NCBI GenBank assembly: GCA_022822865.1
Contig: JAJDYJ010000029.1
Coordinates: 26,440-90,439 of the forward strand
Length of the DNA: 64,000 bases
Source: Pseudomonadales bacterium
GTDB taxonomy: Bacteria > Pseudomonadota > Gammaproteobacteria > Pseudomonadales > Pseudohongiellaceae
Reading direction: 5' to 3'
Positions 12,712-40,904 of the stretch are shown piece by piece. How positions within the stretch are numbered: the first letter of the stretch is position 1; each line of letters opens with the position of its first letter. A model generated the notes under the pieces. The model was not told where the DNA came from, made no database searches, and saw nothing but the letters and a program-made list of their open reading frames with translations. Position numbers and translations under genes: made by a program.

Positions 12712-12717
12712 TGATTC

Positions 12718-14062: not shown

Positions 14063-14076
14063 GGCTCTTCCTCCCC

Positions 14077-17785: not shown

Positions 17786-17790
17786 TGTAC

Positions 17791-19071
17791 TCAGTGCCTG
17801 TACGGGCAACGTTGCTCCTTGATATGCCGCTCGAAATCTTCGCGGAAGTATCGCAGGCCGCTGCCCAGGGGCGCGGTGGCGCCGGGCGCGAGCGCGCAGA
17901 AAGTCTTGCCCGGTCCCATGTAGTCCACGTGTTCTTCGAGGATCGCCAGATCCTCGTAAGTGCCGTTGCCACGCTCGAATTCCCGGAAAATCTCGTCGAC
18001 CCAGGGCAAGCCGTCCCGGCACGGCGTGCAATAGCCGCAGGACTCATGGGAGAAAAACGTCATCAGATTGCCGATCATGCCCACCGGACAGGTCTTGTCG
18101 TCGAGCAGGATCAGGGTGCCGGTGGCGAGCCTGCTGCCCGCCCCGGCGATATCGTCGTAATCAAGATTCAGGTCGAGATGTTCCGGCAGCATGAAATCCG
18201 TCGATCCGCCGCCTGGCAGAAAGCCTTTCAGTTGCAATCCGTCGCGCATGCCGCCGCCGTATACTTCGAGCAATTCGCGGATCGGCGTGCCCAGGGGCAG
18301 TTCCCAGCAGCCGGGCGTGCGCGCCTTGCCGCTGATGCCGAACAGCTTGGTGCCGTGATCGTTGCCTTTCGTCAGGCTGCGATACCAGTCGATGCCCCAG
18401 GCGAGGATGCCGGGCAGATTGCAGATGGTTTCCACGTTATTGACGATGGTCGGCTTGCCCCAGAGCCCGCTGACCTGGGGGAAAGGCGGCTTCGCGCGCG
18501 GATTGGCGCGTTTGCCTTCGAGCGCGTTCAGCAACGCGGTTTCCTCGCCGCAGATGTAGCGCCCGGCGCTGGTATGCAGGATGATGTCGAGGTCGAAGCC
18601 GGTGTCGAGGATATTGCGCCCCAGGTAGCCGCTTTCATAGGCCTCCGCCAGCGCCTTGCGCAGGATGCGTTCCGAATCGGTGTATTCGCCGCGCAGAAAG
18701 ATATAGGCCTTGCTTGCCTGGATGGCGTAGGAGGCGATGAGCATGCCGTCAATGAGCAGATGCGGATCGCCCTCCATCAGCAGGCGGTCCTTGAAGGTGC
18801 CCGGCTCCATTTCGTCGGCGTTGACGACGAAATACTTCTGTTTCGGCGCCTTCTCGCCCATGGGCACGAAACTCCATTTCAGGCCGGTCGGGAAACCCGC
18901 GCCGCCGCGGCCTTTCAGGCCCGACTCCTTGACCTGTTCCAGCACGTCGGCCGGATCGAGACCGCGGGCGATCGCGTGCAGGCCATGATAACCGCCGGTC
19001 GCCTCGTAGGCCGCCAACTCCAGCGGCTGCCGCGAGAAATCGATATTTCTTGTCAGGGGGTTGCTGACCAC
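17791..19071 (-). CDS. nuoF: NADH-quinone oxidoreductase subunit F
   Basis: Track ORF 17791..19314. The likely start is the GTG at 19069-19071, just after the nuoE stop. Motifs: GLKGRGGAGFPTGLKW and ESCGYCTPCRDG. Confidence 0.9.
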   Translation of the reverse strand: MVSNPLTRNIDFSRQPLELAAYEATGGYHGLHAIARGLDPADVLEQVKESGLKGRGGAGFPTGLKWSFVPMGEKAPKQKYFVVNADEMEPGTFKDRLLMEGDPHLLIDGMLIASYAIQASKAYIFLRGEYTDSERILRKALAEAYESGYLGRNILDTGFDLDIILHTSAGRYICGEETALLNALEGKRANPRAKPPFPQVSGLWGKPTIVNNVETICNLPGILAWGIDWYRSLTKGNDHGTKLFGISGKARTPGCWELPLGTPIRELLEVYGGGMRDGLQLKGFLPGGGSTDFMLPEHLDLNLDYDDIAGAGSRLATGTLILLDDKTCPVGMIGNLMTFFSHESCGYCTPCRDGLPWVDEIFREFERGNGTYEDLAILEEHVDYMGPGKTFCALAPGATAPLGSGLRYFREDFERHIKEQRCPYRH

Positions 19072-19073
19072 GA

Positions 19074-19601
19074 TCAGTCCTGCCTGTCCCGGTAGTTCGC
19101 GAAGATTTCGCCCAGATTCTTCCGATCCAGGTTGCGATGCAGGTCCGGCCCCACCATCATCACCGGCGCCCGGTCGCAGTCGCCGAGACAGGGAACCGGG
19201 ATCAAGGTGAATTCGCCGTCTGCGCTGGTTTCGCCGTAATCGATGCCGAGTTCCCCGGAAATCTTCTCCTTGACCTGATCGCAGCCCATGATCCAGCAAC
19301 TGACGCTCTTGCAATAGAGAATCACGTTCCTGCCTACCGGACGGCGGTAGATCAGGTTGAAAAAAGTCGCCACGCCTTCGAGTTCCGCCGCCGGCAGGCC
19401 GAGATATTCGGCGACGGCGAGCAGGGATTCGTCGGAAACCCAGCCGCGATGCTTCTGCACGATCTTCAGGGCTTCCAGGCCCACGGCGCGGGTGTCCGGA
19501 TAAAGCGTACGCTCGTGTTCAATCTCGGCGATTTCCGCATCCAGCAGGTAATCCGTGGAAACGGCCGTCGAGGCGATCAGTTGTTCGGTCTTTGTACTCA
19601 T
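19074..19601 (-). CDS. nuoE: NADH-quinone oxidoreductase subunit E
   Basis: 175 aa with 2Fe-2S ligand motifs CKSVSCWIMGC and CLGDCDRAP. Confidence 0.93.
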   Translation of the reverse strand: MSTKTEQLIASTAVSTDYLLDAEIAEIEHERTLYPDTRAVGLEALKIVQKHRGWVSDESLLAVAEYLGLPAAELEGVATFFNLIYRRPVGRNVILYCKSVSCWIMGCDQVKEKISGELGIDYGETSADGEFTLIPVPCLGDCDRAPVMMVGPDLHRNLDRKNLGEIFANYRDRQD

Positions 19602-19633
19602 CGGTTTCCGCTAGCTTTTCTTGACCCCTTGGC

Positions 19634-21409
19634 TTAGCGATCCACGTCCGCCATGACGAAATCGATGCTGGCGATGATCGCGATCAGGTCCGCCACCATG
19701 AAACCGTTGCTGATATGCGGAATCATCTGCAAATGGGCGAAGGACGGGGTGCGGATCCGCGTGCGGTAGGAGCCGCCGCTGCCGTCGCTGACCAGGTAAT
19801 AGCTGTTGATGCCCTTGGTCGCTTCGATCGAAACGGTGACTTCGTCGGGCGGAATCACCGGCCCCCAGCTTACGCTGAGAAAGTGGTTGATCAGGGTTTC
19901 GATGTCGCGCAGGGTTTCTTCCTTGCGCGGCGGCGTGGTCAGCGGATGGTCGGCCTTGTAGTGGCCGCCGGGCATGTTGTCCAGGCATTGCTTGATGATG
20001 CGCAGGCTCTGTCGCATTTCCTCGACGCGCACCGCGCAGCGGTCGTAGCAATCGCCGTTGACGGCGATGGGCACGTCGAATTCGAAGTTGTCGTAGCCGG
20101 CGTAGGGCCGCTGCTTGCGGAAATCCCATTCCAGGCCGGTGGCGCGCAGTCCGGCGCCGGTAACGCCCCAATCGAAGGCTTCCTGCGTATCGTAGACGCC
20201 GACGCCCTGGGTGCGCCGCTTGAGGATGCCGTTATTGAGCACCATGCTGTCGTATTCGTCGATCCGCGGCGGCATGAATTCGAGCAGCTCCCGCACGCGC
20301 ATGTCCCAGCCTTCGGGCAGGTCCTGGGCGACGCCGCCGATGCGGAACCAGCCCGGATGCATGCGCGCGCCACAGATCGATTCGATGATGTTGAAGATGC
20401 GTTCGCGCTCGACGAACATGTAGAAGATCGGCGAAAGCTGGCCCACGTCCTGGGCGAAAGTGCCATAGAACAGCAAGTGGCTGCAGATACGGAACATTTC
20501 GGCCAGCATGATGCGGATGACTTTGGCGCGCTCGGGCACTTCGATGCCCGCCATCTTCTCCACCGCCATCACGTAAGGCAGGTTGTTCATTACCCCGCCG
20601 AGGTAATCGATGCGGTCGGTATAGGGAATGAAAGTGTGCCAGGACTGGCGCTCGGCCATCTTTTCCGCGCCACGGTGGTGGTAACCGATATCCGGCACCG
20701 CGTCGATGAGTATTTCGCCGTCGAGTTGCAATGCGATGCGGAAAGCGCCATGGACGCTAGGGTGATTGGGCCCTAGATTCAGAAACATGAATTCCGAATC
20801 CTCCGACTTTCGCTTCATGCCCCATTGTTCGGGATTGAACAGCAGGGCGTCCTGTTCGTAGCCCGCCTGATCGTCGTCGAGCGAATACGGGTCCATTTCC
20901 GTCGCCCGGGCCGGATGTTCCTTGCGCAGGGGGTGGCCTTCCCAGGTCGGCGGCAGGATCAGCCGGTAGAGATTCGGATGACCTTCGAAATTAATGGCGA
21001 ACATGTCCCAGGCTTCGCGCTCGTACCAGTTCGCGGCGGGCCAGAGTCCGGTCACGGTCGGTATGTTCAGGTCCGCGTCCATCAGGGGCACCTTGACGCG
21101 GAAGTCGCAATTGCCGGAGAAGGACATCAGGTGATAGACGACGGTGAACTCGCTCGGCGGCTGCGATTCGCGATGCGTGCGCATGCGCTCGTCGATGGCG
21201 GTCAGATCGAACAGCATCTCGAAACGCGGATTGGCCCCTTCGCGCAGTTCGCGCAGGAATTCCACCACGTCGCCGCGGTCTACCCAGACCGTGGGAATGC
21301 CGTCACAGGTGAATTGCTCGGCGAGAATGCGGCCGGCGAATTTCGCCTGTAACGCAGCCGGGATCAGGCTGGTTGCCATTGTCGTGCTGGTAGCGGTCGC
21401 GACTGGCAT
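19634..21409 (-). CDS. nuoC: NADH-quinone oxidoreductase fused subunit C/D
   Basis: 591 aa. The NuoC part carries [10 protein letters not shown] and the NuoD part carries [14 protein letters not shown]...VMADVDR. The fusion is as in E. coli and Pseudomonas. Confidence 0.94.
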
Positions 21410-21451
21410 GTCCTTGAATTTTCCGGCTCTGCTACTTTGTTTGACCTGGAT

Positions 21452-22093
21452 TCAGACGCGGTCCGGAGAGCGCAATTCGGTCGCGGCGATCCGCTCGTCA
21501 TGGCGGAACTCGCGTTGCACCGTCCTCGGTTTTTTCTGGATGATGCCCTGGTCGTTGATGACCCAACTCAGCGGCCGGCGTTGCTTGCCGACCTGTTCCT
21601 GCAACAGGATCAGACCCTGCAGCAGCGCCTCCGGACGCGGCGGGCAACCGGAAACGTAAACGTCCACGGGCAGGAACTTGTCGACTCCCTGCACTACTGA
21701 ATAGATGTCGTACATGCCGCCGGAGTTGGCGCAGGAGCCCATGCTGATCACCCATTTGGGCTCGAGCATCTGGTCGTACAGCAATCGCACCACCGGCGCC
21801 ATCTTGCGGAACACCGTGCCGGCGATAACGATCATGTCCGCCTGCCGCGGCGTGCCGCGAATGACCTCGGCGCCGAACCGCGCCAGGTCGTGGCGGGCGG
21901 TGAAGGCGGTCGCCATTTCCACGTAGCAGCAGGAAAGGCCGAAATTGAACGGCCAGATCGAGTTCTTGCGGCCCCAGGCGATCATGTCCTCCAGTCTGGC
22001 CATGACCACGTTGCGGCGCAGGAATTCGTCGACGCTCGCGCCGCCGGGCTGACCTGAAGAAGCCTCCTCGGCCTTTTGCAACTGCCAGCTCAC
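21452..22093 (-). CDS. nuoB: NADH-quinone oxidoreductase subunit B
   Basis: Track ORF 21452..22258. The likely start is the GTG at 22091-22093, overlapping the nuoA stop (TTGTGA). Motifs: [28 protein letters not shown]. Confidence 0.9.
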
Positions 22094-22518
22094 AAGTGGA
22101 ATTCCTTCTTGTTGGTCACGCCGCCGGCGCCGCGCAATTCGCGCAATTCTCGCCGCTGGATATCGGTACGCCAATCCAGCGCGCCCACGCGCCAGAGATA
22201 GAACAGCGCCGCAAGCAATATGACGATGAAAACGGCGATTTCGATAAAGCCGACCCATCCGGTCTCGCGCACGGAAACCGCCCAGGCGAACAGGAAAACG
22301 ACCTCGAGATCGAAAATGATGAACAGGATCGCCGGCAGATAGAAATGCACGGCGGTGCGGAATTGCGCCGAACCGACGGAAACGATGCCTGACTCGAAAG
22401 GCGTATCGGTGTATTTGCGGGAGGCGCTCTGCCCGAGAAAATACGACAGGCCGAGCATGAGGCCGACTATCGCCAGCACGGCGGCGGCGTAAAAGAAAAA
22501 AGGTGCTAGATCGCTCAT
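22090..22518 (-). CDS. nuoA: NADH-quinone oxidoreductase subunit A
   Basis: Track ORF 22090..22569, trimmed to [19 protein letters not shown] (ATG 22516-22518). 142 aa with three TM helices and [11 protein letters not shown]. Confidence 0.9.
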
Positions 22519-22545
22519 GAATGACGGCGCCGAAATCGGTCCGGG

Positions 22546-22574
22546 AATGTACACGGAACGGCCGTTCAAGGCAA
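22546..22574 (-). promoter_or_regulatory. weak sigma70-like promoter candidate upstream of nuoA
   Basis: The minus strand reads TTGCCT, a 17-nt spacer, then TACATT. It ends about 28 nt upstream of the nuoA ATG. This rests on hexamer match only. Confidence 0.25.
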
Positions 22575-22616: not shown

Positions 22617-22946
22617 TCAGTTCGGCACGTAGATTATCTCGCCGGATTCGAGCTGGTACGCGGTACCGACCGGGCGGCCCCGCTCGCCTGTCTGTTGCCG
22701 GGATTCTTCTGCCGTATAGGCGCGGATTTCCTCCCCTTCCCTGATGATGATCTCCATGTCTTCCTCGCCGGGATTCTTGACCAGGGTGAACTCTTCGCTG
22801 AACAGCAGTTCTCCGAGTTCGAGGTGGCTGATCAGAGCCGCCATCAGCGCCACGGAGAAAACCATGGCGATATCGAACAGGTTGACGAGCGAACTCAATG
22901 GGTCGAGTTCGTCGCTGTCGGCAAGAAAGGTCTCGTATCGCTTCAT
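22617..22946 (-). CDS. DUF2149-like single-pass membrane protein (topology resembles ExbD/TolR)
   Basis: 109 aa. A short N-terminus is followed by one TM helix with an embedded Asp ([20 protein letters not shown]) and a soluble roughly 70-aa C-terminal domain. Its ATG overlaps the stop of the ExbB-like gene (ATGA). Confidence 0.8.
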
Positions 22947-23557
22947 GATCGTTCCGCCTCCGACTCGGTCTTGTATTGCAGCACGAACTCCAGCCGATGC
23001 ATGCCCTGGGCGAAACGCCGCTTGCGCGACTGATGCAGGACGAAGCCGATGCTGCCGATCACGATGCCGAGCACCGTGGTCGAAAAGGCGACTTGCATGT
23101 TCTGGGTCAGGCTGGCCATATCTCCCGCCGCGAGGCCCGCGAGCGCCGGGCCCATGGGGATCAGCGTGCCGATCAGCCCGAGGCTGGGACCGAGACGGAT
23201 CAGCAGCCGCGGGAAAGAGAGCTGATTATCGCCGTGCAGGGCAAAATCTCCGAGCTGTCGTTCGCGCACCGAGCGCTTCGTCATGTCGTCCATGACCGTG
23301 AGCATGTGTCTGCTCAGCGGCGAGGCGTAGCTGCCCGCGCATTCCACGAGCCGCGCCTTGTAATCGGCAAATTCTCCGGCGACAAGCCGGCCTTCCGCGG
23401 CGTCGAGCGCCTTGAGAAGGCTCAGGTCCTGCTGGCGTTGCTGCCAGTCCTGCCCGAGCAGCAGCAGCGCGCGCACGAGCAGATAGAGCAGCAAGGCGAT
23501 GCACGGAACGAGCAGGCCCGTGCTCACCCAGGTAAGCGTGGAGAAAAAACTCAGCAT
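22943..23557 (-). CDS. MotA/TolQ/ExbB-family proton channel protein
   Basis: 204 aa with three TM helices and the family motif LGPSLGLIGTLIPMGPAL...AFSTTVLGIVIG. It starts 1 nt after the upstream stop. Confidence 0.82.
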   Translation of the reverse strand: MLSFFSTLTWVSTGLLVPCIALLLYLLVRALLLLGQDWQQRQQDLSLLKALDAAEGRLVAGEFADYKARLVECAGSYASPLSRHMLTVMDDMTKRSVRERQLGDFALHGDNQLSFPRLLIRLGPSLGLIGTLIPMGPALAGLAAGDMASLTQNMQVAFSTTVLGIVIGSIGFVLHQSRKRRFAQGMHRLEFVLQYKTESEAERS

Positions 23558-23558
23558 G

Positions 23559-24257
23559 TCAGGCTCGAGACCTCGCCCTGGCGCCTCTGTCGCGCAGATT
23601 TTGCCACGAATAACCGGCGATTATCAGGACGAGCAGGATGCCGGGTGCCTGCACGGCGCTTGCCAACGTGATCCACTCGTAGCCCTGGAAGTAGCCGGCC
23701 CAACTCGTGTCCGTCGCGTACAGCCATTGCAGGATCAGCAGCAGGCAGGCGAGAAAGCGCGCGGCCGGCAGCCTGCGGGCGAGATTGATCCGTCCCAGTG
23801 CGAAGATCAGCCCGGGCAGCGCGAGCAGCAGGGCCGCGGCGTAGAGCATGCCGAGCCGCGAAAATTCGATGCCCAGCGCCTTATAGAACAGCAACAGTTG
23901 CAGGCTCAGCGCTGCCGGCAGCAACAACAGCAGGGCGCCGTACATCCGCCCATGCAGCAGCAGGCCGAGCGCCTGCAGGCTCAGCGCCACGCCGATCGGT
24001 CTTGACCAGAATTCGAGTGCTGCCAGCCAGACGGTCACGCTCTGACCGCTCAGCCACTTTGACAGCCACAGCGCCGCGCAAGCGAGCGTCGCCGGAACCA
24101 GCGCAAGGCCGAGTCCCAGCGCCACGGGCGGCGGGCAGTAGCGCTGCACCAGCGCGTTGCGGCCGAAAAACGACTGCCGCTGAGACGGCCAGGCGAGCAA
24201 GGCGCAGCAGCAGCCGAGTCCCAGGCTCAGCGCCCACCAGGACGCGGCTTCGCTCAT
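23559..24257 (-). CDS. polytopic (about 6-7 TM) membrane protein of unknown function
   Basis: Track ORF 23559..24293, with the start at MSEAASWWALSLGL. The ATG at 24255-24257 overlaps the CobN-like stop (ATGA). It is Leu/Ala-rich and I recognise no motif. Confidence 0.65.
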   Translation of the reverse strand: MSEAASWWALSLGLGCCCALLAWPSQRQSFFGRNALVQRYCPPPVALGLGLALVPATLACAALWLSKWLSGQSVTVWLAALEFWSRPIGVALSLQALGLLLHGRMYGALLLLLPAALSLQLLLFYKALGIEFSRLGMLYAAALLLALPGLIFALGRINLARRLPAARFLACLLLILQWLYATDTSWAGYFQGYEWITLASAVQAPGILLVLIIAGYSWQNLRDRGARARSRA

Positions 24258-27200
24258 GCCCGCCAGGCGGCCGCCGGCCGCGACCGCCGCCAACGTGCTA
24301 TTGCCAGCAGCGCCGTCAGCGCAAGGCCGATGCCGAGCAGGATCATCGCCAGGTTACGGCCTGCCACGGCCGGCGGCTGAGCGGCTTCGTTGCGCGTCGT
24401 CAATTCCGCCTCAGTGGGCTGTTCCCCGTTTTCTGCCTGCACATCCTGTTCGCGTAACACGAGTTCCGTACTCTGCTCGACCGAGCCGACTTCCGCCGCT
24501 TCGATCTGCTGCTGGTAGCTGGCAAGCAAGGTCGGGTCCAGACGCGCCGCAATGAAGTCCTGCAATGCCGCGTTGCCGCAAGTAAAACTGCCGCAGCCGG
24601 CTTCGAAACGGCTCACGAGGTCGGCGTGCAAATCGGCCAGCGCCTGCAATTGCGCGGCGTCCGGGGTCCAGAAATCCTTGCGGGCGGCTTCGAGCATTAC
24701 TCCGGTGACTTCCTGCAGGGCGTAGGGATTTTCGGTTTCGAAAAAGTCATTGAGGCCCAGGGCGTGCTTGTCGTCGATCAGCGTCTCGAAGACCTGGTTC
24801 CAGAATCCCGGCGCGATGGCGGCGGGTTTCATGGTGTTCCAGCCGAAGGAGTTGCGCAGGGTCTCGGCCATCACTTCGGCACTCGACGCCTCTCCGGCCG
24901 TAAGACCTTCCAGGTAGCGCGGATTGAACAGCGTGGTCCTGGCTTCCTGGGCGATCGCGCTTTGCAGCGTTTCCATCTTCGCCCGATTCGGATTGCGGTA
25001 ATCGGAGAAATACGCCTCCGCGTCCTTGCCGGTGACCGAACGCACCGCCAGGCTCAGGCCGCCCATGAATTCGTAGACGTGATCGAGGCTGAGACCGCCC
25101 CAGGTGTTGCTCGACCTCGGCTGGATGACCACGTCGGTATTGAGCAGCGCGGCGGTAAACAGTTCCGGCACGAACTCGCCCCATTCGCCGGATTCGCCGT
25201 ACATGGCGCCCATGTTGTAGAGATACTGGCTGGCGACATCGGCATCGGACTCCCAAGTGTCGCCCTGCTCCACCATGCCCATGATCTGCGTGCCATAGGA
25301 GCCGTTGACGCCGCCGAAACTCCTGCGCGTCGACAGCCGCCGCGCCTCAGCCGGCGGCAGGCCCTGATCGAGCAGGTGCTGTTCGGCGAGGCGTACGCCG
25401 TCGCGGACGAAGTTTTCGTCTTGATCGGCCGCCAGCGCCGCCATTTCCACCGCGCGGTTGATCAGCGCCAGCCGGGACGCGGCAAGATCGCGCAACTGGC
25501 CCGCGCTTTGCACCACGACGTCGATGCGCGGTCGTCCGAGTTCTTCGGCGGGAATAAGCTCAAGCAACTGTACTTGCCCGTTAGGCGCCCATACCGGGGC
25601 GACGCCAAGCAGGTACATCACTTGCGCGACCGTGGCGCCCTGGGAATGGATGAACTCACTCGGCCAGAGCGTGAAACTGACCTTGTTCGGCAGGCGGCCG
25701 TGGCGTTCCCGGTAATCGCGCAGCATGTCGTCGGCGAGCGCCTTGCCGACTTCCCAGGCGGCCTGGGAAGGCGTCTGCTCGGCGTCGATCGAATACATGT
25801 TGCGCCCGGTCGGCAGTGCGTCGGCATTGAGCAACGGGTCGCCGCCCGAGGCCGGCGAGACGTAGCCGCCGGAGACGGCGTTGCCAAGCGCGACTTTCTG
25901 GTCGGCGCCGCCGGCGAGCAGCAGGTCGGTGTAATTGTCGTACAGCGAAAGCGCCTCAAGCAGGCCAGGTTCGTAATCGAAGGCCAGCGAATCGACGAGC
26001 CCGCCCGGCGTCGCGCCCTCGTTCAGTTCGGCGAACAGCGCTTCCCCGCCTGAAGTCGCTTGCACGGATTCGGGCAACAGATTGTTGACCGAATCGATCA
26101 GCATCAGTTCGGCCGTCAGCGCGGCGTCCGCGTCGGCCCATGTTTCGCCCCAGGTGTACAGGCCCTTGTTGATGCTCGCCTGGGCGAGATCGTCAATGTA
26201 CAACTCGAGTTTCGGCAGCACGTCATCGTCCCAGCCCGGAGCGTCGGCCAGGTCGGTTTCAAGATCGACGTGCAGCTCGATTTCGGTCGCCAGTTCGATG
26301 ATCAGCCGGCGCTGCTCCTCGCGCACCTGGCCCTCTGTGAGGCGGTAATCGTCGAGCCAGCGCCCCAGCGTGGCGAGTTCGGAATACAGGCCGGCGCGCT
26401 GGAACGGCGGCGTCAGGTGGTTGATGATCGTGGCGTAAGAGCGCCGCTTGGCGATGATCGCCTCGCCGACGTTGCTCATCGTGTAAATGTAGAAATGCGG
26501 CGTGTTGCCGATCAGGGCGTCCGCCCAGTCATTGGACGACAGCGCGACCTGCTTGCCCTGGGTGAATTCGAGACTGCCGTGGGTGCCGTAATGGACGATG
26601 GCGTCGGCGCCGAAGCCCAGCCGCATCCAGAGATAGGCAGCCACGTAGCTGTGCGGCGGCGCCTCGCCCGTGCCGTGCACCATGCGGAAATTGTCTTCGC
26701 CGAAGCCCGCCAGCGGCTGCGGCATCAGCGCGACGTTGCCGAACTCGAGCCGCGGCACGGCGATGCGGCTTTCGTCTGCCGGCGGCGTGTCGACGAGGAA
26801 TCTGCCGAGGTTGCCGCCGTGGCGCTCGTCGACCCGGGCGCAAACACCCGCCGCGAGCTCTTCCCGGCACCACTGCCGGTACTCGCCGGCAGTCACCCAG
26901 GCGGGGTTCTGTTCTTCGAGAAAGCGCCGCGCCTGGCCCATGCCGTCGGGCGTCAACACCGGGCCTTCGACGTCGAGCCGGGCGCGGAACGCGGCGTAAT
27001 CGTCCGGCAAATCGCCGAGGTCGTAGCCCTGCTCCTTGAGCATGTGCAGGGTATTGAACAGCGACGGGCTGACTTCCAGCCCGCCGGCAACGAGCGCGTT
27101 CTTGCCGGGGCCGCGGAAATAGACGATGCCGATGCGCTTTTCGGCGTTGGCCGTGCGCTTCAGCCCAATCCAGCGATCGACCATTTCGACATATTCGTCG

Positions 27201-28222
27201 AGCCGTTCAGGAATTGCCTCGAAAATGCGGAAGCCGCGCTCGTCAGCGAATTGCGCATTGACGACCCGCGGTGCGACGCCGCCGTCGAGTTCGGGCAGCA
27301 CGACGTTCATGGTCAGCATGCCGCCCGCATATCCCTGCGAGTCTTCGAGCCATTCCCGGTGTTCCTCGAAAACCGACAGCGGCGTCAGCAGCGGCACCTG
27401 GTTCTCGGTGAACCAGTTGGCCACGGCGTTTTCCCGGCCGAAATTGAAACGCCCGTGGGGCATGAGCACCACCGCGTCGGGATTGACCTCGGCGACCAGC
27501 GCGAGCCGCTCGGCCTGGCCGTTGATAGGATACACGCGCATGCCCGCGCCTTCGAAGGCCTCGATCATCGCGTTGAGATGGTCGCGGTTGGCGTTGAACG
27601 GTCCAGGCACCGTGGTGATCAGCGCAATCTTGTAGCCGTCGGGATTGTAGTTCGGCACGGTTTCGTAGAAACGCTGGTAATCCTCCACCGTGGTGAACAC
27701 TTCGTCGCCGAGGTAGAACAGCACGTCGGTATCGATAAGCAGTGGGTCGCCGGCCTCGGGAGACCGCCAAAGTTTGCCGTCGAGTTCGCGGCGCACGTAG
27801 TACCAGAAATTGCGGTAGTTGTAGTCGCCGCCGTTATCGACGTAGGTTCGCACGAGTTCACTCGCGTCAGGGTTGAGGCTCGTGAGTTGCACGTGGTTGG
27901 GATTGGTGGGACTGTCGATGAAAATCGCGCTGCCGGATTGCACGGCTTCGTCGATCCAGGCCAGTTGTTCGCCGTCCAGCGCGAGACCGCGGCCGAAGAT
28001 CATCACGAAGTCGAAATCCCGCGCGCGCTCGAGCGCCCCGACTTCGAGGCGCTCGAAACGGAACTGCGGCATGTCGGCTACAGCCTTGATGACGCGGCTG
28101 GCGGTGAAATCCGCGAAACTGACCAGTGCGACGCGCGTCGGCGCTGCATAGCGCTGATATGAGAAGAACAGAGCCAGCGCGAACGTCGTGAATATCAAGG
28201 CAGGGACGGAGAATCTTTTCAT
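24254..28222 (-). CDS. CobN/Mg-chelatase-family protein with N-terminal signal or anchor and C-terminal TM anchor
   Basis: 1322 aa. CobN hallmark IVHYGTHGSLEFTQGKQV. The N-terminus is MKRFSVPALIFTTFALALFF. The C-terminus is LAMILLGIGLALTALLAIARWRRSR. A GGAG Shine-Dalgarno (SD) sequence lies 8 nt upstream, and the gene starts 11 nt after the receptor stop. Confidence 0.85.
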   Translation of the reverse strand: MKRFSVPALIFTTFALALFFSYQRYAAPTRVALVSFADFTASRVIKAVADMPQFRFERLEVGALERARDFDFVMIFGRGLALDGEQLAWIDEAVQSGSAIFIDSPTNPNHVQLTSLNPDASELVRTYVDNGGDYNYRNFWYYVRRELDGKLWRSPEAGDPLLIDTDVLFYLGDEVFTTVEDYQRFYETVPNYNPDGYKIALITTVPGPFNANRDHLNAMIEAFEGAGMRVYPINGQAERLALVAEVNPDAVVLMPHGRFNFGRENAVANWFTENQVPLLTPLSVFEEHREWLEDSQGYAGGMLTMNVVLPELDGGVAPRVVNAQFADERGFRIFEAIPERLDEYVEMVDRWIGLKRTANAEKRIGIVYFRGPGKNALVAGGLEVSPSLFNTLHMLKEQGYDLGDLPDDYAAFRARLDVEGPVLTPDGMGQARRFLEEQNPAWVTAGEYRQWCREELAAGVCARVDERHGGNLGRFLVDTPPADESRIAVPRLEFGNVALMPQPLAGFGEDNFRMVHGTGEAPPHSYVAAYLWMRLGFGADAIVHYGTHGSLEFTQGKQVALSSNDWADALIGNTPHFYIYTMSNVGEAIIAKRRSYATIINHLTPPFQRAGLYSELATLGRWLDDYRLTEGQVREEQRRLIIELATEIELHVDLETDLADAPGWDDDVLPKLELYIDDLAQASINKGLYTWGETWADADAALTAELMLIDSVNNLLPESVQATSGGEALFAELNEGATPGGLVDSLAFDYEPGLLEALSLYDNYTDLLLAGGADQKVALGNAVSGGYVSPASGGDPLLNADALPTGRNMYSIDAEQTPSQAAWEVGKALADDMLRDYRERHGRLPNKVSFTLWPSEFIHSQGATVAQVMYLLGVAPVWAPNGQVQLLELIPAEELGRPRIDVVVQSAGQLRDLAASRLALINRAVEMAALAADQDENFVRDGVRLAEQHLLDQGLPPAEARRLSTRRSFGGVNGSYGTQIMGMVEQGDTWESDADVASQYLYNMGAMYGESGEWGEFVPELFTAALLNTDVVIQPRSSNTWGGLSLDHVYEFMGGLSLAVRSVTGKDAEAYFSDYRNPNRAKMETLQSAIAQEARTTLFNPRYLEGLTAGEASSAEVMAETLRNSFGWNTMKPAAIAPGFWNQVFETLIDDKHALGLNDFFETENPYALQEVTGVMLEAARKDFWTPDAAQLQALADLHADLVSRFEAGCGSFTCGNAALQDFIAARLDPTLLASYQQQIEAAEVGSVEQSTELVLREQDVQAENGEQPTEAELTTRNEAAQPPAVAGRNLAMILLGIGLALTALLAIARWRRSRPAAAWRA

Positions 28223-28233: not shown

Positions 28234-30411
28234 CTACATGCCGAATCGATAGCGGGCCGAGACGGAGAAAGTCCTGCCCGGCGCGGCGGCGCCGTCAGGG
28301 TCGTCGCTGATGCCCGACCCCGCCACGAATTGCGGCCAGTACTGTTCGTCGAACAGGTTGTCGATCCTGAAATTCAGGCTGAAGCTGTCGGAGAAGTCGT
28401 AAAAAAGGCTGGCGTCGACGCGCGTGTAGTCAGGCACGACGAAACTGCCCGGTTCGACATCGGTGAACTCGTCCACCAGCAGGGCCTGCAGGTTGGCGCC
28501 GAAGTTGGCGTCGGCGGAGCGGTAGCCGAGTCCGAGAATCGTCTGTCGCGGGCCGACGCTGGTCAGCGGTTCGTCGCTCGAGCGGTTTTCGCCCTCGATG
28601 TCGCCCCAGCTCAGGCTCAGCAGCCATTCGTCCTCGGTGTCCAGCCAGTTGTGCAGGTACAGCTCAGCGTCGATTTCAGCGCCGCTTACTTCCACCTCGC
28701 TCAGATTCCGATACTGAATCTGCGTCACGGAACGGAAACCGGGAATCGGGTTCGGGCGGCTGCCGGAACGCGTGCTCTCGATGAAGTCCTCGTAGTCGGT
28801 GTTGTAAGTCGAGATTTCGAATCTGCCCATCTCGCCGCGCAACCGCAGGCCGACCTCGATGCCGTTGCTCTTTTCCGACTTCAGGTCGGGATTGGCGAGC
28901 ACTTCGTGCGGGAACCAACGGCTCTGGATGAAGGTGTTGATGTACTGCGAAGAAACCGGCGGCGCACGGAATCCGCTGACGTAATTGCCGAACAGGATCA
29001 GGTTTTCGTTCGCTTCCCAGGTCAGGCCGACGCTCGGCGAAACGCTGTCGCTGCTGAATGCGCCGACGCTTATTCCCGTGGGATTCGAATTGAAATACAA
29101 CTCATCCGGCTGGGGATCGTTCTCGAAGTAGTCGTAGCGCAATCCCAGCGTGATCCGCAGCCGGTCTTCCGCGAGTCTCAACTCGTCCTGGACGAAAACG
29201 CCAAGCAGGTCGGTATCGCTGGAAGGATAACTCTTGAGCGGGTAAACGACGCCGTTGCGCGCCGGATCGACTACGCCGGTGTCCGGATAGAAATCCCGAT
29301 AATAGTTGAGGCGTTCGGCGGACTTGCGCACGAAATCGACCCCGGCCAGCAATTCGTGGTTCGAGAATTCCTCGCCGATCAGTAAACTGGCCGAGACCAG
29401 ATCCTGGTCGATGTCGACCTCTTCCATGTCGATTACATTCTCGCCGCCACGGGTCACGCTTTCCTCGAATTCGTCTTCGTCGATGCGCCCCTGCTGCAGG
29501 TCGACTTGCCAGTCGAGGCGGTCCAGCCCCATGACGTCCGTCAGGTTCTGGTAGAAACCGATGCGCCAGCGATGGCTCCGGTCCTGCTCGTAGTGGTCGG
29601 TAACCGAAGTTCCGGAGGGGAGGGCAGAGTTGTAACTGACGTCCACGCTACGGCGCCAGAAATCCGCCAGGACGCCATACTCGTTGTCGGAGGCGCCGTC
29701 GTTCTCCCACTTCAGCAGCACGTTTTCCTGGTTGCCGTCGAAGGGATGATTCTTGTAGTCGCCGTAAATCTCCGTTTCGGAGAATTGCCGCGTGGAAACC
29801 TGTAGCAGGTACGCCCCGCCGAGTGCTGCGCCGGCGCCGCTGAATGTCTGCCGGAAGCCATCGTTGACCTGGTCGTAGCCGCCGCCTACTTCGAATACCG
29901 AATCGTTGCCGCCGCCGAGCATCTGCCGCGGCGAAATCGTGTTCAGCAACACCACGCCGGCGAGGGCGTCGCTGCCGTAAAGTGCGGATGACGGCCCCTT
30001 GAGGAACTGGATGTTGTTCATCGAATAAGGTTCGAAACTGTTGCGGCCGTTGGAGACGCCGGCGGAACCGAAGCCGTCCGGCAATCGCGTGCCGTCGATC
30101 AGCATCACCACACGGTTGCCCGACAGGCCGCGGATGACGAAGGTGCCGTTGCCGCGCCGGTCGCTGGACTGATCGATACTGATGGCCGGCTGATAGCGGA
30201 CCAGGTCCGCCAGACTGTTCGGCTGCAATTCCTGTATATCCTGCTCGTCCAGCACTTCCAGGCTTGCCGGCGTGCTCCAGAGGGAGGTTTCCTTTCGCTG
30301 CACCTGGACAACGATTTCTTCGACTTGTTCTTGCGCGACCGCAAGTTCCGCGCTCGTAAAGGCGCAAACCGCCAAAGGAATGGTCCAACCATACTTTCGC
30401 TTGAAACTCAT
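28234..30411 (-). CDS. TonB-dependent outer-membrane receptor (receptor 2)
   Basis: Track ORF 28234..30564, trimmed to MSFKRKYGWTIPLAVCAFTSAELAVAQ (ATG 30409-30411). Signal peptide, TonB-box-like EEIVVQV, plug motif IRGLSGNRVVMLIDG...LKGPSSALYGSDALAGVV, and a beta-barrel C-terminus. Confidence 0.88.
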   Translation of the reverse strand: MSFKRKYGWTIPLAVCAFTSAELAVAQEQVEEIVVQVQRKETSLWSTPASLEVLDEQDIQELQPNSLADLVRYQPAISIDQSSDRRGNGTFVIRGLSGNRVVMLIDGTRLPDGFGSAGVSNGRNSFEPYSMNNIQFLKGPSSALYGSDALAGVVLLNTISPRQMLGGGNDSVFEVGGGYDQVNDGFRQTFSGAGAALGGAYLLQVSTRQFSETEIYGDYKNHPFDGNQENVLLKWENDGASDNEYGVLADFWRRSVDVSYNSALPSGTSVTDHYEQDRSHRWRIGFYQNLTDVMGLDRLDWQVDLQQGRIDEDEFEESVTRGGENVIDMEEVDIDQDLVSASLLIGEEFSNHELLAGVDFVRKSAERLNYYRDFYPDTGVVDPARNGVVYPLKSYPSSDTDLLGVFVQDELRLAEDRLRITLGLRYDYFENDPQPDELYFNSNPTGISVGAFSSDSVSPSVGLTWEANENLILFGNYVSGFRAPPVSSQYINTFIQSRWFPHEVLANPDLKSEKSNGIEVGLRLRGEMGRFEISTYNTDYEDFIESTRSGSRPNPIPGFRSVTQIQYRNLSEVEVSGAEIDAELYLHNWLDTEDEWLLSLSWGDIEGENRSSDEPLTSVGPRQTILGLGYRSADANFGANLQALLVDEFTDVEPGSFVVPDYTRVDASLFYDFSDSFSLNFRIDNLFDEQYWPQFVAGSGISDDPDGAAAPGRTFSVSARYRFGM

Positions 30412-30600: not shown

Positions 30601-30882
30601 TTAACCGCGGGGTGGAGAGCGGGACCGCGCCGTGGGGACTTCGACCGACTGGGGAGTCAGCGAGGCGCGGGTGTAGTTTTTGTCAGCCGGGAGTGGATTC
30701 GAATCGGATTCCCGGGATTGCGTGAAATCGTCGTCCTGGCCGAACTTGAGGCAGATTTCACATTCGAAATGTTCGCCTGGCTCACCGTCATGACTGTGAG
30801 CCGTATCGGAGTTCAGCGCGAAAACCAGCAACAGGGAAAGCACGGCCATCGAATTGAGATGGCCAGCCAGGACTTTCCTCAT
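30601..30882 (-). CDS. small secreted His/Cys protein (DUF2946-like, from memory)
   Basis: 93 aa from MRKVLAGHLNSMAVLSLLLVFALNSDTAHS (an alternative ATG at 30903 adds 7 aa). The mature part reads HDGEPGEHFECEICLKF...ARSRSPPRG. CxxC plus a C-terminal R-x-PP is what I recall for DUF2946. Confidence 0.6.
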   Translation of the reverse strand: MRKVLAGHLNSMAVLSLLLVFALNSDTAHSHDGEPGEHFECEICLKFGQDDDFTQSRESDSNPLPADKNYTRASLTPQSVEVPTARSRSPPRG

Positions 30883-30946
30883 GCCTGCTATTGAAATTCG
30901 CATTGCAATCCGCTTTTTCGTCCGTGCTTCGTGCAACAACCGGCTG

Positions 30947-30975
30947 AGTATCCGAACTGGCCCGCGCCTTGTCAA
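30947..30975 (-). promoter_or_regulatory. sigma70-type promoter candidate for the small ORF / receptor 2 / CobN-like operon
   Basis: The minus strand reads TTGACA (30970-30975), a 17-nt spacer, then GATACT (30947-30952). It sits in the 130-bp gap after the MerC-like gene. Confidence 0.5.
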
Positions 30976-31034: not shown

Positions 31035-31478
31035 TCAGTGCGTCGTTTGTTCGTCGAGTTCCGACATGCCTTGCCGAGACACGTCCGTGGAATGGCAATC
31101 GTGTTGCCGGCAAAGCCAGAAATTGCGTACATGCGCATAAGCGATAATCGTTGCGCCGGCAACGGTGAGAATCTTCTCGCCGGTCTCTCCCGTCACGTCT
31201 TCCCCCAGTATCGGCACGAGGAAAAGTACGAAGAGACCGAGCAGCCCCGTTATTAGAATCTTGAAATGACCATGCTTGCGACAGCCGAGGCTCAAGGCGA
31301 AGAGACTGGTAGGGAGCACGAGAAAGAGAACCGCGTAGTGGAAGCTTTCGTCTTCCAGAAAAGTCGCTCCCAGCGCCGGAATCATGGCGATGGCCACCGG
31401 CGTGAGCAGGCAATGGACCACGCAAACCAGCGATAGGCCTATAGCCGCCTTATCCGCATTTGCCGACGATGCCTGCAC
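31035..31478 (-). CDS. MerC-like four-TM membrane protein with Cys/His motifs
   Basis: Track ORF 31035..31499. I prefer the GTG at 31476-31478, which is preceded by AGGAGA. Motifs: LVCVVHCLLTP, GCRKHGH, and the C-terminal FWLCRQHDCH. Confidence 0.65.
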   Translation of the reverse strand: MQASSANADKAAIGLSLVCVVHCLLTPVAIAMIPALGATFLEDESFHYAVLFLVLPTSLFALSLGCRKHGHFKILITGLLGLFVLFLVPILGEDVTGETGEKILTVAGATIIAYAHVRNFWLCRQHDCHSTDVSRQGMSELDEQTTH

Positions 31479-31495
31479 TATTGTTCTCCTGACAA

Positions 31496-32926
31496 TCAAC
31501 TGTTGATGGGGCTCGCCGACCGCAGCCGCCGGTTCACAAGCAGCATCATACCAATGGAGAGCAACAACAGGAACATCATCGGCGCCATGCCGCGAGCCAA
31601 TCTTGCGAAGAGCGCTTCGCCTTCGAAGCTGAACTCCGGGATAGTCTGGTAAAACCCGGAATCGATCGGCTGTTTGGCGACGATGTTCGGGCCGACCAGT
31701 TCCGCATACCCCGCCTTGAATTGCCGCGCCTGGGTCAGGTAGTCCTGGTGCCGCCGGGCCGACGTTCCGGCCAGTTCCACAAACAGGCTATTGGCCGCAA
31801 TGGCCGGAGATACGAAACGGAAAAGTCCGATTGCGTTTTCGCGGCTCCTCAGCGCCTCTTCAAAGGAATCCACGATGGGCCGTGTCGCCTCGTCCACTGT
31901 CGAGGTCACCAGGAAAGAGGAAAGCACGAAAGCCGGAATCTGCGATTCCTGATCGACCAGCAGTTCCGGATGGTCAAGCATGAACTGGTTGGCCACATCG
32001 GCCTCCTGGAGCCGGGTTTCGTTTTCGACTTCCCTCGCATCGGCCAGAAAGGCCAGGCGCGACGGCGTCGGATAGAGCGCCTCCGCCGTCGCGCTGGTGG
32101 CCGCGGGAATGACCAGGGTGAGCCCGGCCCACAAGCCCAGCAGCGCCAGCAAATTGAATTCGCCGCTCCTGTTGTAGCTGGCGATCCAGGCGATCAGCAT
32201 CAACCAGAAGAACCCGTAAAGAAGTACGAGCAGCGACCAGAATCCGAACGCCGGCAAACGCGCACCGGGACTTGCTTCGCCCGACCCGGACGCCAGCGCA
32301 ATCAGCGCGGCGGCAAAGGTCACGAACAATACGATGCCCGCGCGAAACAGCAGGCGCTGCCAGAACAAGTTCCTGACGCTCGCACCCTGCGCTACCGCAA
32401 GACCCAGCCTCCCGGCGTCGCGGTCGGCGGCGATCACGTCGAAACAGAAAACGATCAGCAGCAGCGGCAGGAACAGGATTACCGCCTTGCTGATGTCGAA
32501 ACTGCCGAGCGCCAATGAAACCGGATCCGCGATTTCATACCTTGAGAACAATCGTATGTCCGGGTCCCATAGCGAAATCTCGCCGGCAAAGGGCAACAGA
32601 TCCGATTGGCCGACGGCGAAATCAGCCAGCGGCTCCTGGGGCAGTGACGACGCGAACACCACATCCATGGCCGAGCCTGTCGCGGGCGGCACTTCCGCCG
32701 CGCTACCGAGTCTTTCGAGTTCGCGCAAATCGTCCAGCCAGCCGGCCATCGCCTGTTCGATTTCGGAGTTATGGCCAGCGATGGCCGCGGCGCGTTCATC
32801 GTGCTCCGTCCTGCCCGCCTGCCCGCCGTAAATCAGCACCGAGGCAAACGCCAGCAGCAACAGGAGCGAAGAGACGCGCTGAAACTGCATCTTCCACTCG
32901 CAAGCGACGAGATCCGTCATACGCAT
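31496..32926 (-). CDS. ABC-2-type permease, DUF3526-like (module 2, second permease)
   Basis: 476 aa: an N-terminal TM, a periplasmic segment, a TM bundle (AVILFLPLLLIVF...), a roughly 170-aa soluble insert, and a terminal TM. Confidence 0.7.
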   Translation of the reverse strand: MRMTDLVACEWKMQFQRVSSLLLLLAFASVLIYGGQAGRTEHDERAAAIAGHNSEIEQAMAGWLDDLRELERLGSAAEVPPATGSAMDVVFASSLPQEPLADFAVGQSDLLPFAGEISLWDPDIRLFSRYEIADPVSLALGSFDISKAVILFLPLLLIVFCFDVIAADRDAGRLGLAVAQGASVRNLFWQRLLFRAGIVLFVTFAAALIALASGSGEASPGARLPAFGFWSLLVLLYGFFWLMLIAWIASYNRSGEFNLLALLGLWAGLTLVIPAATSATAEALYPTPSRLAFLADAREVENETRLQEADVANQFMLDHPELLVDQESQIPAFVLSSFLVTSTVDEATRPIVDSFEEALRSRENAIGLFRFVSPAIAANSLFVELAGTSARRHQDYLTQARQFKAGYAELVGPNIVAKQPIDSGFYQTIPEFSFEGEALFARLARGMAPMMFLLLLSIGMMLLVNRRLRSASPINS

Positions 32927-32935
32927 GAGCGAACC

Positions 32936-34375
32936 TCACACTCGGGTTCGATCGGCGCCGAACCAGAACATGGCCGCCATGGCGGCCAGACCCCAGAACA
33001 GCAATATCGTCAGATCCCGGGCGCTCTCGCTCCAGGCCGTGGCAACGGAAGGCGGCCGGTAGTCGAACTCCGGCACCGTTTCCCAGAATTCGGGAGGCGA
33101 CAGGTAACCGAAACTCTCACCGGCGCCATTGAGCATCATGTCCTCGTTCATCGCTCGCACGATATCGTTGCGCTGGCGCTCCGCTTCCAGCGAAAAGTGT
33201 TCATGGGCGCCGATGTCGGTGCCCGAGTAAGCGCGTGAAAGATGTTGCAATGCGATCGTCGGGGAGAGAACGGAGAGCATTCGGCGCAGGTTCTTCTGTT
33301 TTTCGTAGTTGGCGAAGAGTTCGGCGTAAGCCGCGTTGTAGGCTTCCTGATCGATCACCTCGCTCACTTCCAGGCGCAGCGCACCGCGGTTTATCTCCAG
33401 GTCATCCAGTTCGTCCACGCGCAATTCCCTGCCTAACGCGCGTTCGACCACTTCCCGCTCCACGGCGACGTAGTCTTCACTCTCGCTCGGCGGCCGATTG
33501 GCCTGCAGGCTGGCCCGGGTGTCTTCCCAGAACGTTGCCGAGTCCGGGCTTGGATATACCTGTTCGGCAATACTTGCCGACAGCCGCGGCAATCCGACGA
33601 CGGTCACGACCCAGATCCCCAGCAAGAGCAGCAAGGCCGTTCTGGCCTCGGCAACCAGCATGGATACCAGCAGCGTGACGGCGGTCAGGCACACGATGTA
33701 AAGCCCATACACGAAAAGCAGCGAGAGACCGCGCAGGACCAGATCGCCGCCCGAAAAGCCCGATTCCGACAGCGACAGCAAGGAAAACGACGTCGATATC
33801 GCAACAGCGGCGGCCAGCACGGCGAAAGCCACCCCGGCAATTACGATGAATTTCCCAAGCAGCAGGTGAATCGGACTGGCGCCCGAACCGACCAGTTGCC
33901 GCAAGGTGCCGCGTTCACGCTCGCCGGCGATGCTGCCGTAGCCCATGAGCACTACCAGCAATGGCAGGATGAGCGTCAATACTCCCGCGATACTGAAATT
34001 TTCCAGCCTGCTGAGTTCAGGGGCATCCTCCGCTGCGCGAAACATGGCTGGGTTGCGTGAATGCGCCTCAAGCCAGATGACCTGCCCCATGAAAGAAGAA
34101 ACGCCGGGGTCGAAGGAAGCCAGGGGGGCCACCGGCTTATGGGCCATGCGGCTGAAATGCGCGGCGGAGTGCGGGTTTTTTTCACCCTGTTCCAGGAACA
34201 CCGCGGAATCGTCGGCCTGGGCCTGCAGGACTTCCCGCTCTCTCGCATTCTCGGTTGCAAGACCGGTAGTCAATCCAAGCACGAGCAGCAGCCCGACGAT
34301 GCCCAGCAAGCCCAGGGCCCTGCCGTCGCGCCTTATCTCTGTCAACTCTTTACCGATTATTGCGCCAATCATCAC
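32936..34375 (-). CDS. ABC-2-type permease, DUF3526-like (module 2, first permease)
   Basis: 479 aa. It is a paralog of 36362..37804 (NPHSAAHFSRMAHKPVAPLASFDPGV versus HPHRMVHYGHYVFRTPPPLAMIDPGV; both carry ERE..TL..L). The start overlaps the ATPase stop. Confidence 0.72.
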   Translation of the reverse strand: MMIGAIIGKELTEIRRDGRALGLLGIVGLLLVLGLTTGLATENAREREVLQAQADDSAVFLEQGEKNPHSAAHFSRMAHKPVAPLASFDPGVSSFMGQVIWLEAHSRNPAMFRAAEDAPELSRLENFSIAGVLTLILPLLVVLMGYGSIAGERERGTLRQLVGSGASPIHLLLGKFIVIAGVAFAVLAAAVAISTSFSLLSLSESGFSGGDLVLRGLSLLFVYGLYIVCLTAVTLLVSMLVAEARTALLLLLGIWVVTVVGLPRLSASIAEQVYPSPDSATFWEDTRASLQANRPPSESEDYVAVEREVVERALGRELRVDELDDLEINRGALRLEVSEVIDQEAYNAAYAELFANYEKQKNLRRMLSVLSPTIALQHLSRAYSGTDIGAHEHFSLEAERQRNDIVRAMNEDMMLNGAGESFGYLSPPEFWETVPEFDYRPPSVATAWSESARDLTILLFWGLAAMAAMFWFGADRTRV

Positions 34376-38523: not shown

Positions 38524-38570
38524 TTGAACTCCTGAATCAGGGGCGGTACCGCGCGCCTCGCCGGTTTTGG

Positions 38571-38601
38571 TCCATGACGCAACCGTTTGTTGCGCCATGG
38601 A
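38571..38601 (-). other. 13-bp-stem hairpin between receptor 1 and ABC module 1
   Basis: The minus strand reads TCCATGGCGCAAC-AAACG-GTTGCGTCATGGA (one G-U pair). No following U-tract, so this is an intra-operon attenuator or stabiliser candidate rather than a clear terminator. Confidence 0.5.
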
Positions 38602-38611
38602 CTCAGGCCGG

Positions 38612-40813: not shown

Positions 40814-40904
40814 TGGTTGTCTCAATCTGTAAACGTTTGAAATACCGCAAAGTCAGCGGCGCAGAGTGCGCAGACGCTCGCGGTCGTACGAAAATCAAGG
40901 CGTT

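Follow-up and report, generated by a model that had tools for sequence, protein, structure and literature searches.

Here we describe an HmuS-like protein encoded in a stretch of 64,000 nucleotides (nt) from contig JAJDYJ010000029.1 of a Pseudomonadales bacterium (assembly GCA_022822865.1, positions 26,440 to 90,439 of the forward strand); this whole stretch is referred to below as the window. The protein, a class I chelatase superfamily member, almost certainly belongs with the HmuS clade. Very probably it is anchored in the membrane and faces the periplasm, with the two termini on the cytoplasmic side and the body, some 1270 residues, outside. The explanation that best accounts for all observations, which we hold with moderate confidence, is a periplasmic HmuS-like heme dechelatase of variant type, anchored in the inner membrane. 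Periplasmic, anchored relatives of chelatases are a class already known from gut Bacteroides, and the window protein is an unusual proteobacterial variant of it. Coordinates of all features are collected in Table 1.

Identity and predicted membrane topology of the HmuS-like protein

The protein matched the Pfam family CobN-Mg_chel with 923 bits. When all solved structures were searched, its best relative was the HmuS heme dechelatase of Bacteroides thetaiotaomicron (9d26_A, 1018 bits over residues 22-695 and 761-1268); the scores of CobN and ChlH were 356 and 332 bits. Scores with the NCBIfam equivalog models for CobN and BchH were far under their cutoffs (NF004644, 617 vs. 1248 bits; TIGR02257, 490 vs. 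822; TIGR02025, 545 vs. 829), and the protein is therefore considered HmuS-like rather than CobN. Seven homologs (P0012, P0033, P0065, P0105, P0109, P0111 and P0116) were also below these cutoffs; together with the window protein, they gave about 610-670 bits with the CobN model, against the same cutoff of 1248. Judging by the scores of these eight proteins, no curated NCBIfam model covers HmuS-like proteins, and the homologs carry public names such as 'cobaltochelatase subunit CobN' or 'protoporphyrin IX magnesium chelatase'. The original prediction, made from the sequence of the window, was a CobN-family chelatase; the superfamily and the Pfam match were correct, but the protein is an HmuS-like (de)chelatase and not a canonical CobN.

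HmuS of B. thetaiotaomicron is a membrane-bound, ATP-independent and NADH-dependent enzyme that converts heme to protoporphyrin IX and Fe(II) in vitro in a His-538-dependent manner; a single helix is predicted at each terminus, both helices were removed for expression, and activity was found in the membrane fraction (PMC12583661). This protein (PDB 9D26) and the window protein match over nearly their full length and have in common a helix at both termini, the His-Gly-Arg head/neck motif, the body motifs HxGTHG and LSLDHxxEFMGG, both catalytic His residues, and the order of downstream genes (membrane protein, ExbB-like, DUF2149). The window protein is, however, about 140 residues shorter, its locus has no gene for an HmuY hemophore, and its host, a proteobacterium, has a complex I operon and is not an anaerobic member of Bacteroidota.

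Other members of this branch have been studied in Bacteroidota. BtuS1 and BtuS2 of Bacteroides fragilis are predicted to be periplasmic and membrane-anchored, and release of heme iron was placed in the periplasm because FeoAB was needed (PMC6460266). When expressed in E. coli, HmuS of Porphyromonas gingivalis was present in the inner-membrane fraction and was accessible to proteinase K in cells without outer membrane/spheroplasts (PMC13227078). Like the window protein, these proteins are CobN-like and are predicted, or have been partly shown, to be anchored in the inner membrane and exposed to the periplasm; they occur in hmu-type clusters and are needed for use of heme as an iron source, but unlike the window protein they come from Bacteroidota hosts (PMC6460266, PMC13227078). 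Canonical CobN and ChlH/BchH share with the window protein the Pfam domain, the six-domain fold family and the superfamily-wide central-cavity His, whereas they are soluble, cytoplasmic proteins that insert metals with AAA+ ATPase partners and the window protein has terminal membrane helices. The same contrast with CobN/ChlH had been drawn in the original prediction. It holds here, but it is not new, being a known hallmark of the HmuS/BtuS branch.

All strings on which that prediction was built, namely MKRFSVPALIFTTFALALFFSYQRYAAP, RVALVSFADF, HYGTHGSLEF, LAMILLGIGLALTALLAIA and the tail RWRRSRP, were present in the open reading frame (ORF). The N-terminus was indeed basic and hydrophobic ahead of RVALVSFADF, the CobN signature HYGTHGSLEF was intact (residues 544-553), and the C-terminus had a single hydrophobic helix followed by RWRRSRP, with no further membrane-like segment in the protein. 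Hydropathy was expressed as the Kyte-Doolittle mean in a 19-residue window (KD19); only two stretches of the protein exceeded a KD19 of 1.6, and the internal maximum was 1.22. A possibility raised with the prediction was that the true start codon lay downstream of the N-terminal hydrophobic segment. The ATG has an AGGAG motif 8 nt upstream, which overlaps the stop codon of the preceding receptor gene, and the only other in-frame start candidates among the first 60 codons were TTG (codon 9) and ATG (codon 51). Pro28 and Thr29, directly after the N-terminal segment, were invariant in a 14-sequence alignment covering several phyla, and a start at codon 51 would delete both. Given this loss and the placement of AGGAG, the start is not downstream of the hydrophobic segment.

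The two terminal segments differ in strength. In a simple sum on the Hessa scale, the C-terminal helix scored -3.2 and the N-terminal segment +1.8, and the latter is therefore only marginal as a stable anchor. Pro28 follows Ala27, and a proline in this position blocks signal peptidase cleavage there; in addition, Ala15-Leu16-Ala17 lies inside the hydrophobic stretch and is not conserved among homologs. The C-terminal helix is expected to hold the protein, probably together with an uncleaved N-terminal anchor, and export of the body is predicted whether or not the N-terminal segment is cleaved.

Among 5.8 billion proteins searched, 258 relatives were obtained at E ≤ 1e-50, and the best 120 of the 258, which came from Gamma-, Alpha- and Betaproteobacteria, Acidobacteria, Planctomycetota and Bacteroidota, were taken for comparison. 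With one truncated entry left out, the terminal segments could be compared in 120 sequences (the window protein and 119 homologs). An N-terminal hydrophobic segment (KD > 1.4) was present in 114 of these and a C-terminal one (KD > 1.6) in 119, and none had an internal segment above 1.6. The cytoplasmic flank was more positive than the periplasmic flank at the N-terminus in 115/120 sequences and, in the form of the tail, at the C-terminus in 118/120. Because both the segments and the positive-inside charge bias recur across the set, the two-anchor, body-outside architecture appears to be a conserved family trait. For the window protein, this topology follows from charge rules and published work on HmuS, and is supported by the conservation in the 120 homologs, by the operon context (receptor and ExbB/ExbD-like pair) and by homology to HmuS; the earlier claim of a membrane-tethered body facing the periplasm is thus well supported.

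Two conserved Cys pairs were also observed. One, in the sequence CGSFTC (residues 1210-1215; 24578-24595, minus strand), lies just past the Pfam domain and was kept in 110 of 120 homologs; the other, Cys452/Cys461, was kept in about 70-79 of 120. Both pairs could form disulfides in the periplasm.

Catalytic residues and departures from published HmuS

Three His residues, His544, His548 and His1048, were invariant in all 120 sequences; His548 corresponds to the catalytic His-538 of HmuS and His1048 to His-1209. Four features have been described as defining the HmuS family: a methionine-rich insertion in domain IV, Met-79, His-254, and body motifs with His-538 and His-1209 (PMC12583661). Two of these, the insertion and Met-79, are missing from the window protein, which keeps the catalytic site, the anchors and the operon and is a variant in this sense.

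At the head/neck heme site, Arg78 occupies the position of the heme ligand Met-79, and Met305 that of Gln-299. These two positions co-varied without exception among the 120 sequences: all 12 proteins with Met at position 79 had Gln at 299, and the 108 with Arg had either Met (101) or Leu (7). A wider genome sample (L004-L082) revealed a third pattern, common in Bacteroidales, with Arg at 79, Met where HmuS has His-254, and Ala at 299, as well as a few mixed patterns. Three head/neck configurations were therefore distinguished: Met/His/Gln (B. thetaiotaomicron type), Arg/His/Met-or-Leu (window type) and Arg/Met/Ala (many Bacteroidales). Judged by residue positions, the neck may supply the Met in proteins of the window type, which would leave this heme site with a His/Met pair.

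The region of the methionine-rich insertion (residues 690-770) spans 80 residues with a single Met in the window protein, compared to 120 residues with 21 Met in HmuS. Among homologs, this domain IV stretch varied from 34 to 367 residues and was mostly not Met-rich. Most homologs (those of 1560-1600 residues among P0014-P0120) had an extra domain IV insertion of approximately 250-270 residues between window residues 746 and 753; it was not methionine-rich (4-16 Met in about 325-367 residues) and was absent from the window protein and a few clades.

Putative operon, motor-like pair and neighbouring genes

The gene order on the contig is MerC (147 residues), a 100-residue exported protein, the receptor, the HmuS-like protein, a protein with six predicted transmembrane (TM) segments, a MotA/ExbB-like protein, a DUF2149 protein, and nuoA onward; genes from the receptor to DUF2149 overlap or abut. 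This set appears to be an hmuR-S-T-U-V-like operon, in the order described for Bacteroidota (PMC12583661, PMC13227078). Of the six genes in the hmuYRSTUV operon described with HmuS (PMC12583661), R, S, U and V have equivalents here, the 6-TM gene is found at the position of T, and the upstream exported protein is unrelated to HmuY. The 6-TM protein and the 100-residue protein had no match in Pfam, and the former had none in NCBIfam. A sigma-70-like promoter match precedes the 100-residue gene, and both of its hexamers were identical in two relatives.

The receptor passed the curated cutoffs of two heme/hemoglobin receptor models, TIGR01786 (341.6 bits, cutoff 323.75) and TIGR01785 (326.6 bits, cutoff 316.85), and its best solved relative was PhuR (8the_A, 187 bits), followed by ShuA. 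Heme receptors are marked by a FRAP...His...NPNL box. In the window receptor, the corresponding FRAP...His...NPDL box (residues 481-510) reads FRAPPVSSQYINTFIQSRWFPHEVLANPDL, and it was kept in the closest relatives (L004, L005 and L010).

A genome scan with one genome per species identified at least 582 relatives of the HmuS-like protein, and 79 loci, which span Proteobacteria, Acidobacteria, Planctomycetota, Lentisphaerota-like groups and Bacteroidota, were examined. The closest among the matches listed were from uncultured Pseudomonadales and Gammaproteobacteria genomes (96% identity). Synteny was counted in 53 loci in which the HmuS-like gene had 2.5 kb or more of flank on each side. The pair of MotA-like and DUF2149 genes adjoined this gene in 50 of the 53 loci, from several phyla (47 downstream on the same strand and 3 directly upstream); by our criteria, a receptor was linked in 26 of the 53 and was thus rarer than the pair. 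The TM segment of DUF2149 proteins has the motif NLFD(V/I)AMVF..ALM.A, and its Asp25 was invariant in all 63 sequences compared (the window protein and ORFs in 62 loci), which brings to mind the membrane Asp that is essential in ExbD, TolR and MotB. A search of solved structures gave only a marginal MotA match (E 0.057) for the MotA-like protein and none for DUF2149. For the pair, the most plausible interpretation is a proton-driven module similar to ExbB/ExbD.

In four Vicinamibacterales loci (L006, L008, L012 and L058), a second HmuS-like ORF was present close by on the same strand; the two were directly adjacent in L058 and had a receptor gene between them in the other three.

Between the end of the hmu-like operon and nuoA there are about 50-100 nt, and the complete set of nuo genes for complex I (7893-22569, minus strand) comes next on the same strand. 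We considered a functional link, based on the idea that HmuS needs reducing power, and rejected it because the adjacency is not kept in L010, a 72%-identical relative that has ABC/DUF3526 genes downstream instead; the proximity to nuo is probably coincidental.

A second cluster is located upstream on the same strand (31035-41201, minus strand). It includes MerC (31035-31478), a 98-residue exported protein with His and Cys (40905-41201), another TonB-dependent receptor (38612-40825), and an ABC ATPase with two DUF3526 permeases, this set being present twice. In distant genomes (L010, L070 and L075), HmuS-like genes have DUF3526 genes as neighbours and, in one locus, MerC as well. The small exported proteins of the two clusters (30601-30903 and 40905-41201, minus strand) each precede a receptor gene, and both have a signal-like segment, a His-rich patch, Cys residues and a Pro-rich C-terminus; they had no significant similarity to each other and no Pfam match.

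Table 1. Location of features in the window and of ATGTTATAACAT palindromes in related loci (residue numbers refer to the protein named in the row or, for motifs and single residues, to the HmuS-like protein; KD19 as defined in the text)
Feature	Position	Strand	Remarks
HmuS-like class I chelatase-superfamily protein	24254..28222	-	1322 aa, ATG start; stop codon 24254-24256
N-terminal hydrophobic segment FSVPALIFTTFALALFFSY, residues 4-22, after MKR	28157..28213	-	KD19 1.77; signal anchor or signal peptide
Arg78, where HmuS has heme ligand Met-79	27989..27991	-	Arg 108/120, Met 12/120
His256-Gly-Arg, equivalent to HmuS His254-Gly-Arg (heme axial ligand, head/neck interface)	27449..27457	-	alignment to 9d26; His and Gly 120/120; His256 at 27455-27457
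Met305, at HmuS Gln-299 position	27308..27310	-	alignment to 9d26
HYGTHG, residues 544-549 (HmuS HFG(T/A)HG, catalytic His-538)	26576..26593	-	both His invariant, 120/120
LSLDHVYEFMGG, residues 1044-1055 (LSLDHxxEFMGG; HmuS His-1209 equivalent)	25058..25093	-	His invariant, 120/120
Acidic low-complexity linker, residues 1237-1290, from folded body to C-terminal helix	24353..24514	-	past Pfam domain end (residue 1191)
C-terminal transmembrane helix LAMILLGIGLALTALLAIA, residues 1291-1309	24296..24352	-	KD19 2.61
Predicted cytoplasmic tail RWRRSRPAAAWRA	24257..24295	-	5 Arg, no acidic residue
Sigma-70-like promoter match TTGACA, 17 nt, GATACT	30947..30975	-	10/12 positions, consensus match only; upstream of 100-aa gene
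Small exported protein of 100 aa with HSHD and CEIC motifs and a signal-like segment	30601..30903	-	no family match; first gene of putative operon
TonB-dependent outer-membrane receptor, heme/hemoglobin type	28234..30411	-	725 aa as called; ORF extends to 30564
HmuT-position gene, 232 aa, 6 predicted TM segments	23559..24257	-	ATG overlaps HmuS-like stop codon (ATGA)
MotA/TolQ/ExbB-like proton-channel protein, 204 aa, 3 TM, HmuU position	22943..23557	-	Pfam MotA_ExbB 40.5 bits, cutoff 22.9
DUF2149 protein, 109 aa, one TM with Asp25, HmuV position	22617..22946	-	Pfam DUF2149 97 bits
ATGTTATAACAT, exact	L009:4231, L043:7854, L066:852, L078:7841, L083:5848, L084:5888, L085:5891		
ATGTTATAACAT, exact	L086:5844, L088:5855, L089:5870, L090:1510, L091:5851, L092:5855, L060:5622		
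ATGTTATAACAT, 1 mismatch	L087:5833/5860, L059:5534		

Proposed function, rival explanations and significance

In the favoured model, the PhuR-like TonB-dependent receptor would bring heme into the periplasm, where the body of the HmuS-like protein would bind it and the cavity with His548 and His1048 would take Fe(II) from ferrous heme, leaving protoporphyrin IX; neither ATP nor an AAA+ partner would be required. The MotA/ExbB-like and DUF2149 (ExbD-like) proteins would serve as a proton-driven inner-membrane module that energises the system. Heme as the substrate is suggested by the type of receptor, and dechelatase chemistry by the conserved catalytic residues. On balance, these features tip slightly toward removal of heme iron as the actual function.

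Several observations weigh against this function. Arg78 replaces a published heme ligand and the methionine-rich insertion is absent, as described above. No HmuY homolog was detected among the neighbour genes in a Pfam scan. The host, an uncultured Pseudomonadales-like bacterium with a complex I operon, is probably aerobic, and HmuS chemistry has been shown only anaerobically. In addition, iron regulation is not supported because no Fur box was found in or near the operon: in two candidate promoter regions and the whole window, there was no match with fewer than five mismatches, and Fur-like matches with five or more fell inside genes. Finally, Zur-box palindromes in related or sister branches, and a similar operon in Pseudomonas aeruginosa, suggest a connection to zinc.

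The palindrome in question, ATGTTATAACAT, is the core of the published Zur box GATATGTTATAACATATC (PMC2706843). Exact copies were present in 13 short-type Burkholderiales loci, which were most of those fetched, and one more, L087, had only copies with one mismatch. In these loci, the palindrome was about 110-170 nt upstream of the HmuS-like gene, between this gene and a divergent receptor gene. It was also found at the start of the receptor gene in two gammaproteobacterial loci, L060 (exact) and L059 (one mismatch). The chance of an exact 12-mer match in a 20-kb locus is about 0.001, and a zinc-regulated branch of HmuS-like systems seems to exist. The P. aeruginosa operon PA1922-1925 encodes a receptor, a CobN-like protein, ExbB/D-like and DUF2149 proteins, and its expression rises 45- to 147-fold when zinc is depleted (PMC4542158, PMC9431628); PA1923 was found in the inner-membrane fraction (PMC7694347). 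By published description, gene content and order around the CobN-like protein are the same as in the window, and both hosts are Pseudomonadales. However, PA1922-PA1925 has a Zur box and a zinc response and the window has no such box, the window has an additional 6-TM gene, and the PA1922 receptor is described as CirA-like whereas that of the window is PhuR-like. PA1923 was absent from the 120 homologs listed and from the loci of two genome scans, although no further database-wide search was aimed at it.

These findings bear on the possibility that a protein with the same architecture and location acts on a substrate other than heme iron, such as zinc or cobalt from an imported chelate or metallo-tetrapyrrole (Zn-protoporphyrin or a corrinoid). 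A role of this kind has been suspected for PA1922-PA1925, with its zinc response and inner-membrane PA1923, and would fit the palindromes at HmuS-like and receptor genes, all the more as the window protein is of the same Arg78/His256/Met305 type as the proteins of the Zur-box loci. The window itself, however, contained no Zur box of either published form searched, including the gamma-type, and no copy of ATGTTATAACAT at up to two mismatches. Its receptor is heme-type and keeps the full FRAP-His-NPDL box, which receptors of the Zur-box loci lack wholly or partly, and neither a cobalamin riboswitch nor any other RNA family was detected between 20000 and 43000 at E values up to 0.1. We consider another metal substrate unlikely for this protein, although it is the main rival explanation. 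Even less probable is a periplasmic, anchored protein that is not mainly an enzyme, but a heme shuttle or chaperone between the receptor and HmuT/U/V import, or a regulator of another dechelatase. The btuS1 btuS2 mutants of B. fragilis were still able to produce protoporphyrin IX, and a role in regulation or assimilation was proposed (PMC6460266); for P. gingivalis, a function as chaperone or in transfer has been discussed, turnover being not proven (PMC13227078). The tight synteny with the 6-TM protein and the motor-like pair would also suit a carrier. On the other hand, the B. thetaiotaomicron protein converts heme to protoporphyrin IX in vitro and needs His-538 for this (PMC12583661), and a pure carrier is hard to square with equivalents of both His-538 and its partner His-1209 being invariant in 120/120 sequences. 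As for an ordinary cytoplasmic cobaltochelatase subunit CobN, in which the terminal hydrophobic stretches would be irrelevant or come from a mis-called start, the Pfam match of 923 bits and the database names of homologs are what it would predict. It is contradicted by the equivalog scores of the window protein and seven homologs, by an HmuS score approximately three times the CobN score, by the secure start codon and by terminal helices conserved across phyla. Neighbour genes point the same way: no AAA+ partner (CobS/CobT, ChlI/ChlD) and no cob or bch gene was found among the neighbours scanned with Pfam and NCBIfam (receptor, membrane proteins, ABC/DUF3526, MerC and nuo), no cob gene or AAA+ partner was called on the source contig, and the window has no second CobN-like ORF. 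We therefore rejected a plain CobN, which is extremely improbable.

Compared with these alternatives, the variant heme dechelatase remains our preferred explanation, and one extension of it concerns the motor-like pair. A proton-driven ExbB/ExbD-like motor might have replaced the ATP-driven AAA+ motor of canonical chelatases, with Arg78/His256/Met305 proteins as a distinct class that uses His/Met ligation with a relocated Met and of which some branches were recruited for zinc. This idea, which we regard as doubtful, comes from the linkage of the pair in 50/53 loci compared to 26/53 for the receptor, from the lack of any match to a TonB family among the five other genes of the putative operon in Pfam scans, and from the predicted TonB-like layout of the HmuS-like protein, in which an N-terminal anchor precedes a large body in the periplasm. 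By way of the terminal helices, the motor could engage the anchored protein directly and might move the head domain, pull heme from the receptor or distort the porphyrin. In the same reading, the Arg78/His256/Met305 class would be widespread in Proteobacteria and Acidobacteria.

In this study, a systematic mis-annotation is corrected, in which HmuS-like proteins are named cobaltochelatase CobN. The HmuS-type periplasmic system, so far described as typical of anaerobic Bacteroidota, extends to environmental proteobacteria that are probably aerobic, and it occurs there in a form that lacks the methionine-rich insertion and Met-79, both presumed to be defining for the family. If this variant still removes heme iron, these two features would not be essential to the chemistry. 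In addition, sister clades with Zur boxes suggest a link to the unexplained zinc-regulated operon PA1922-1925, which could give that operon a testable function.

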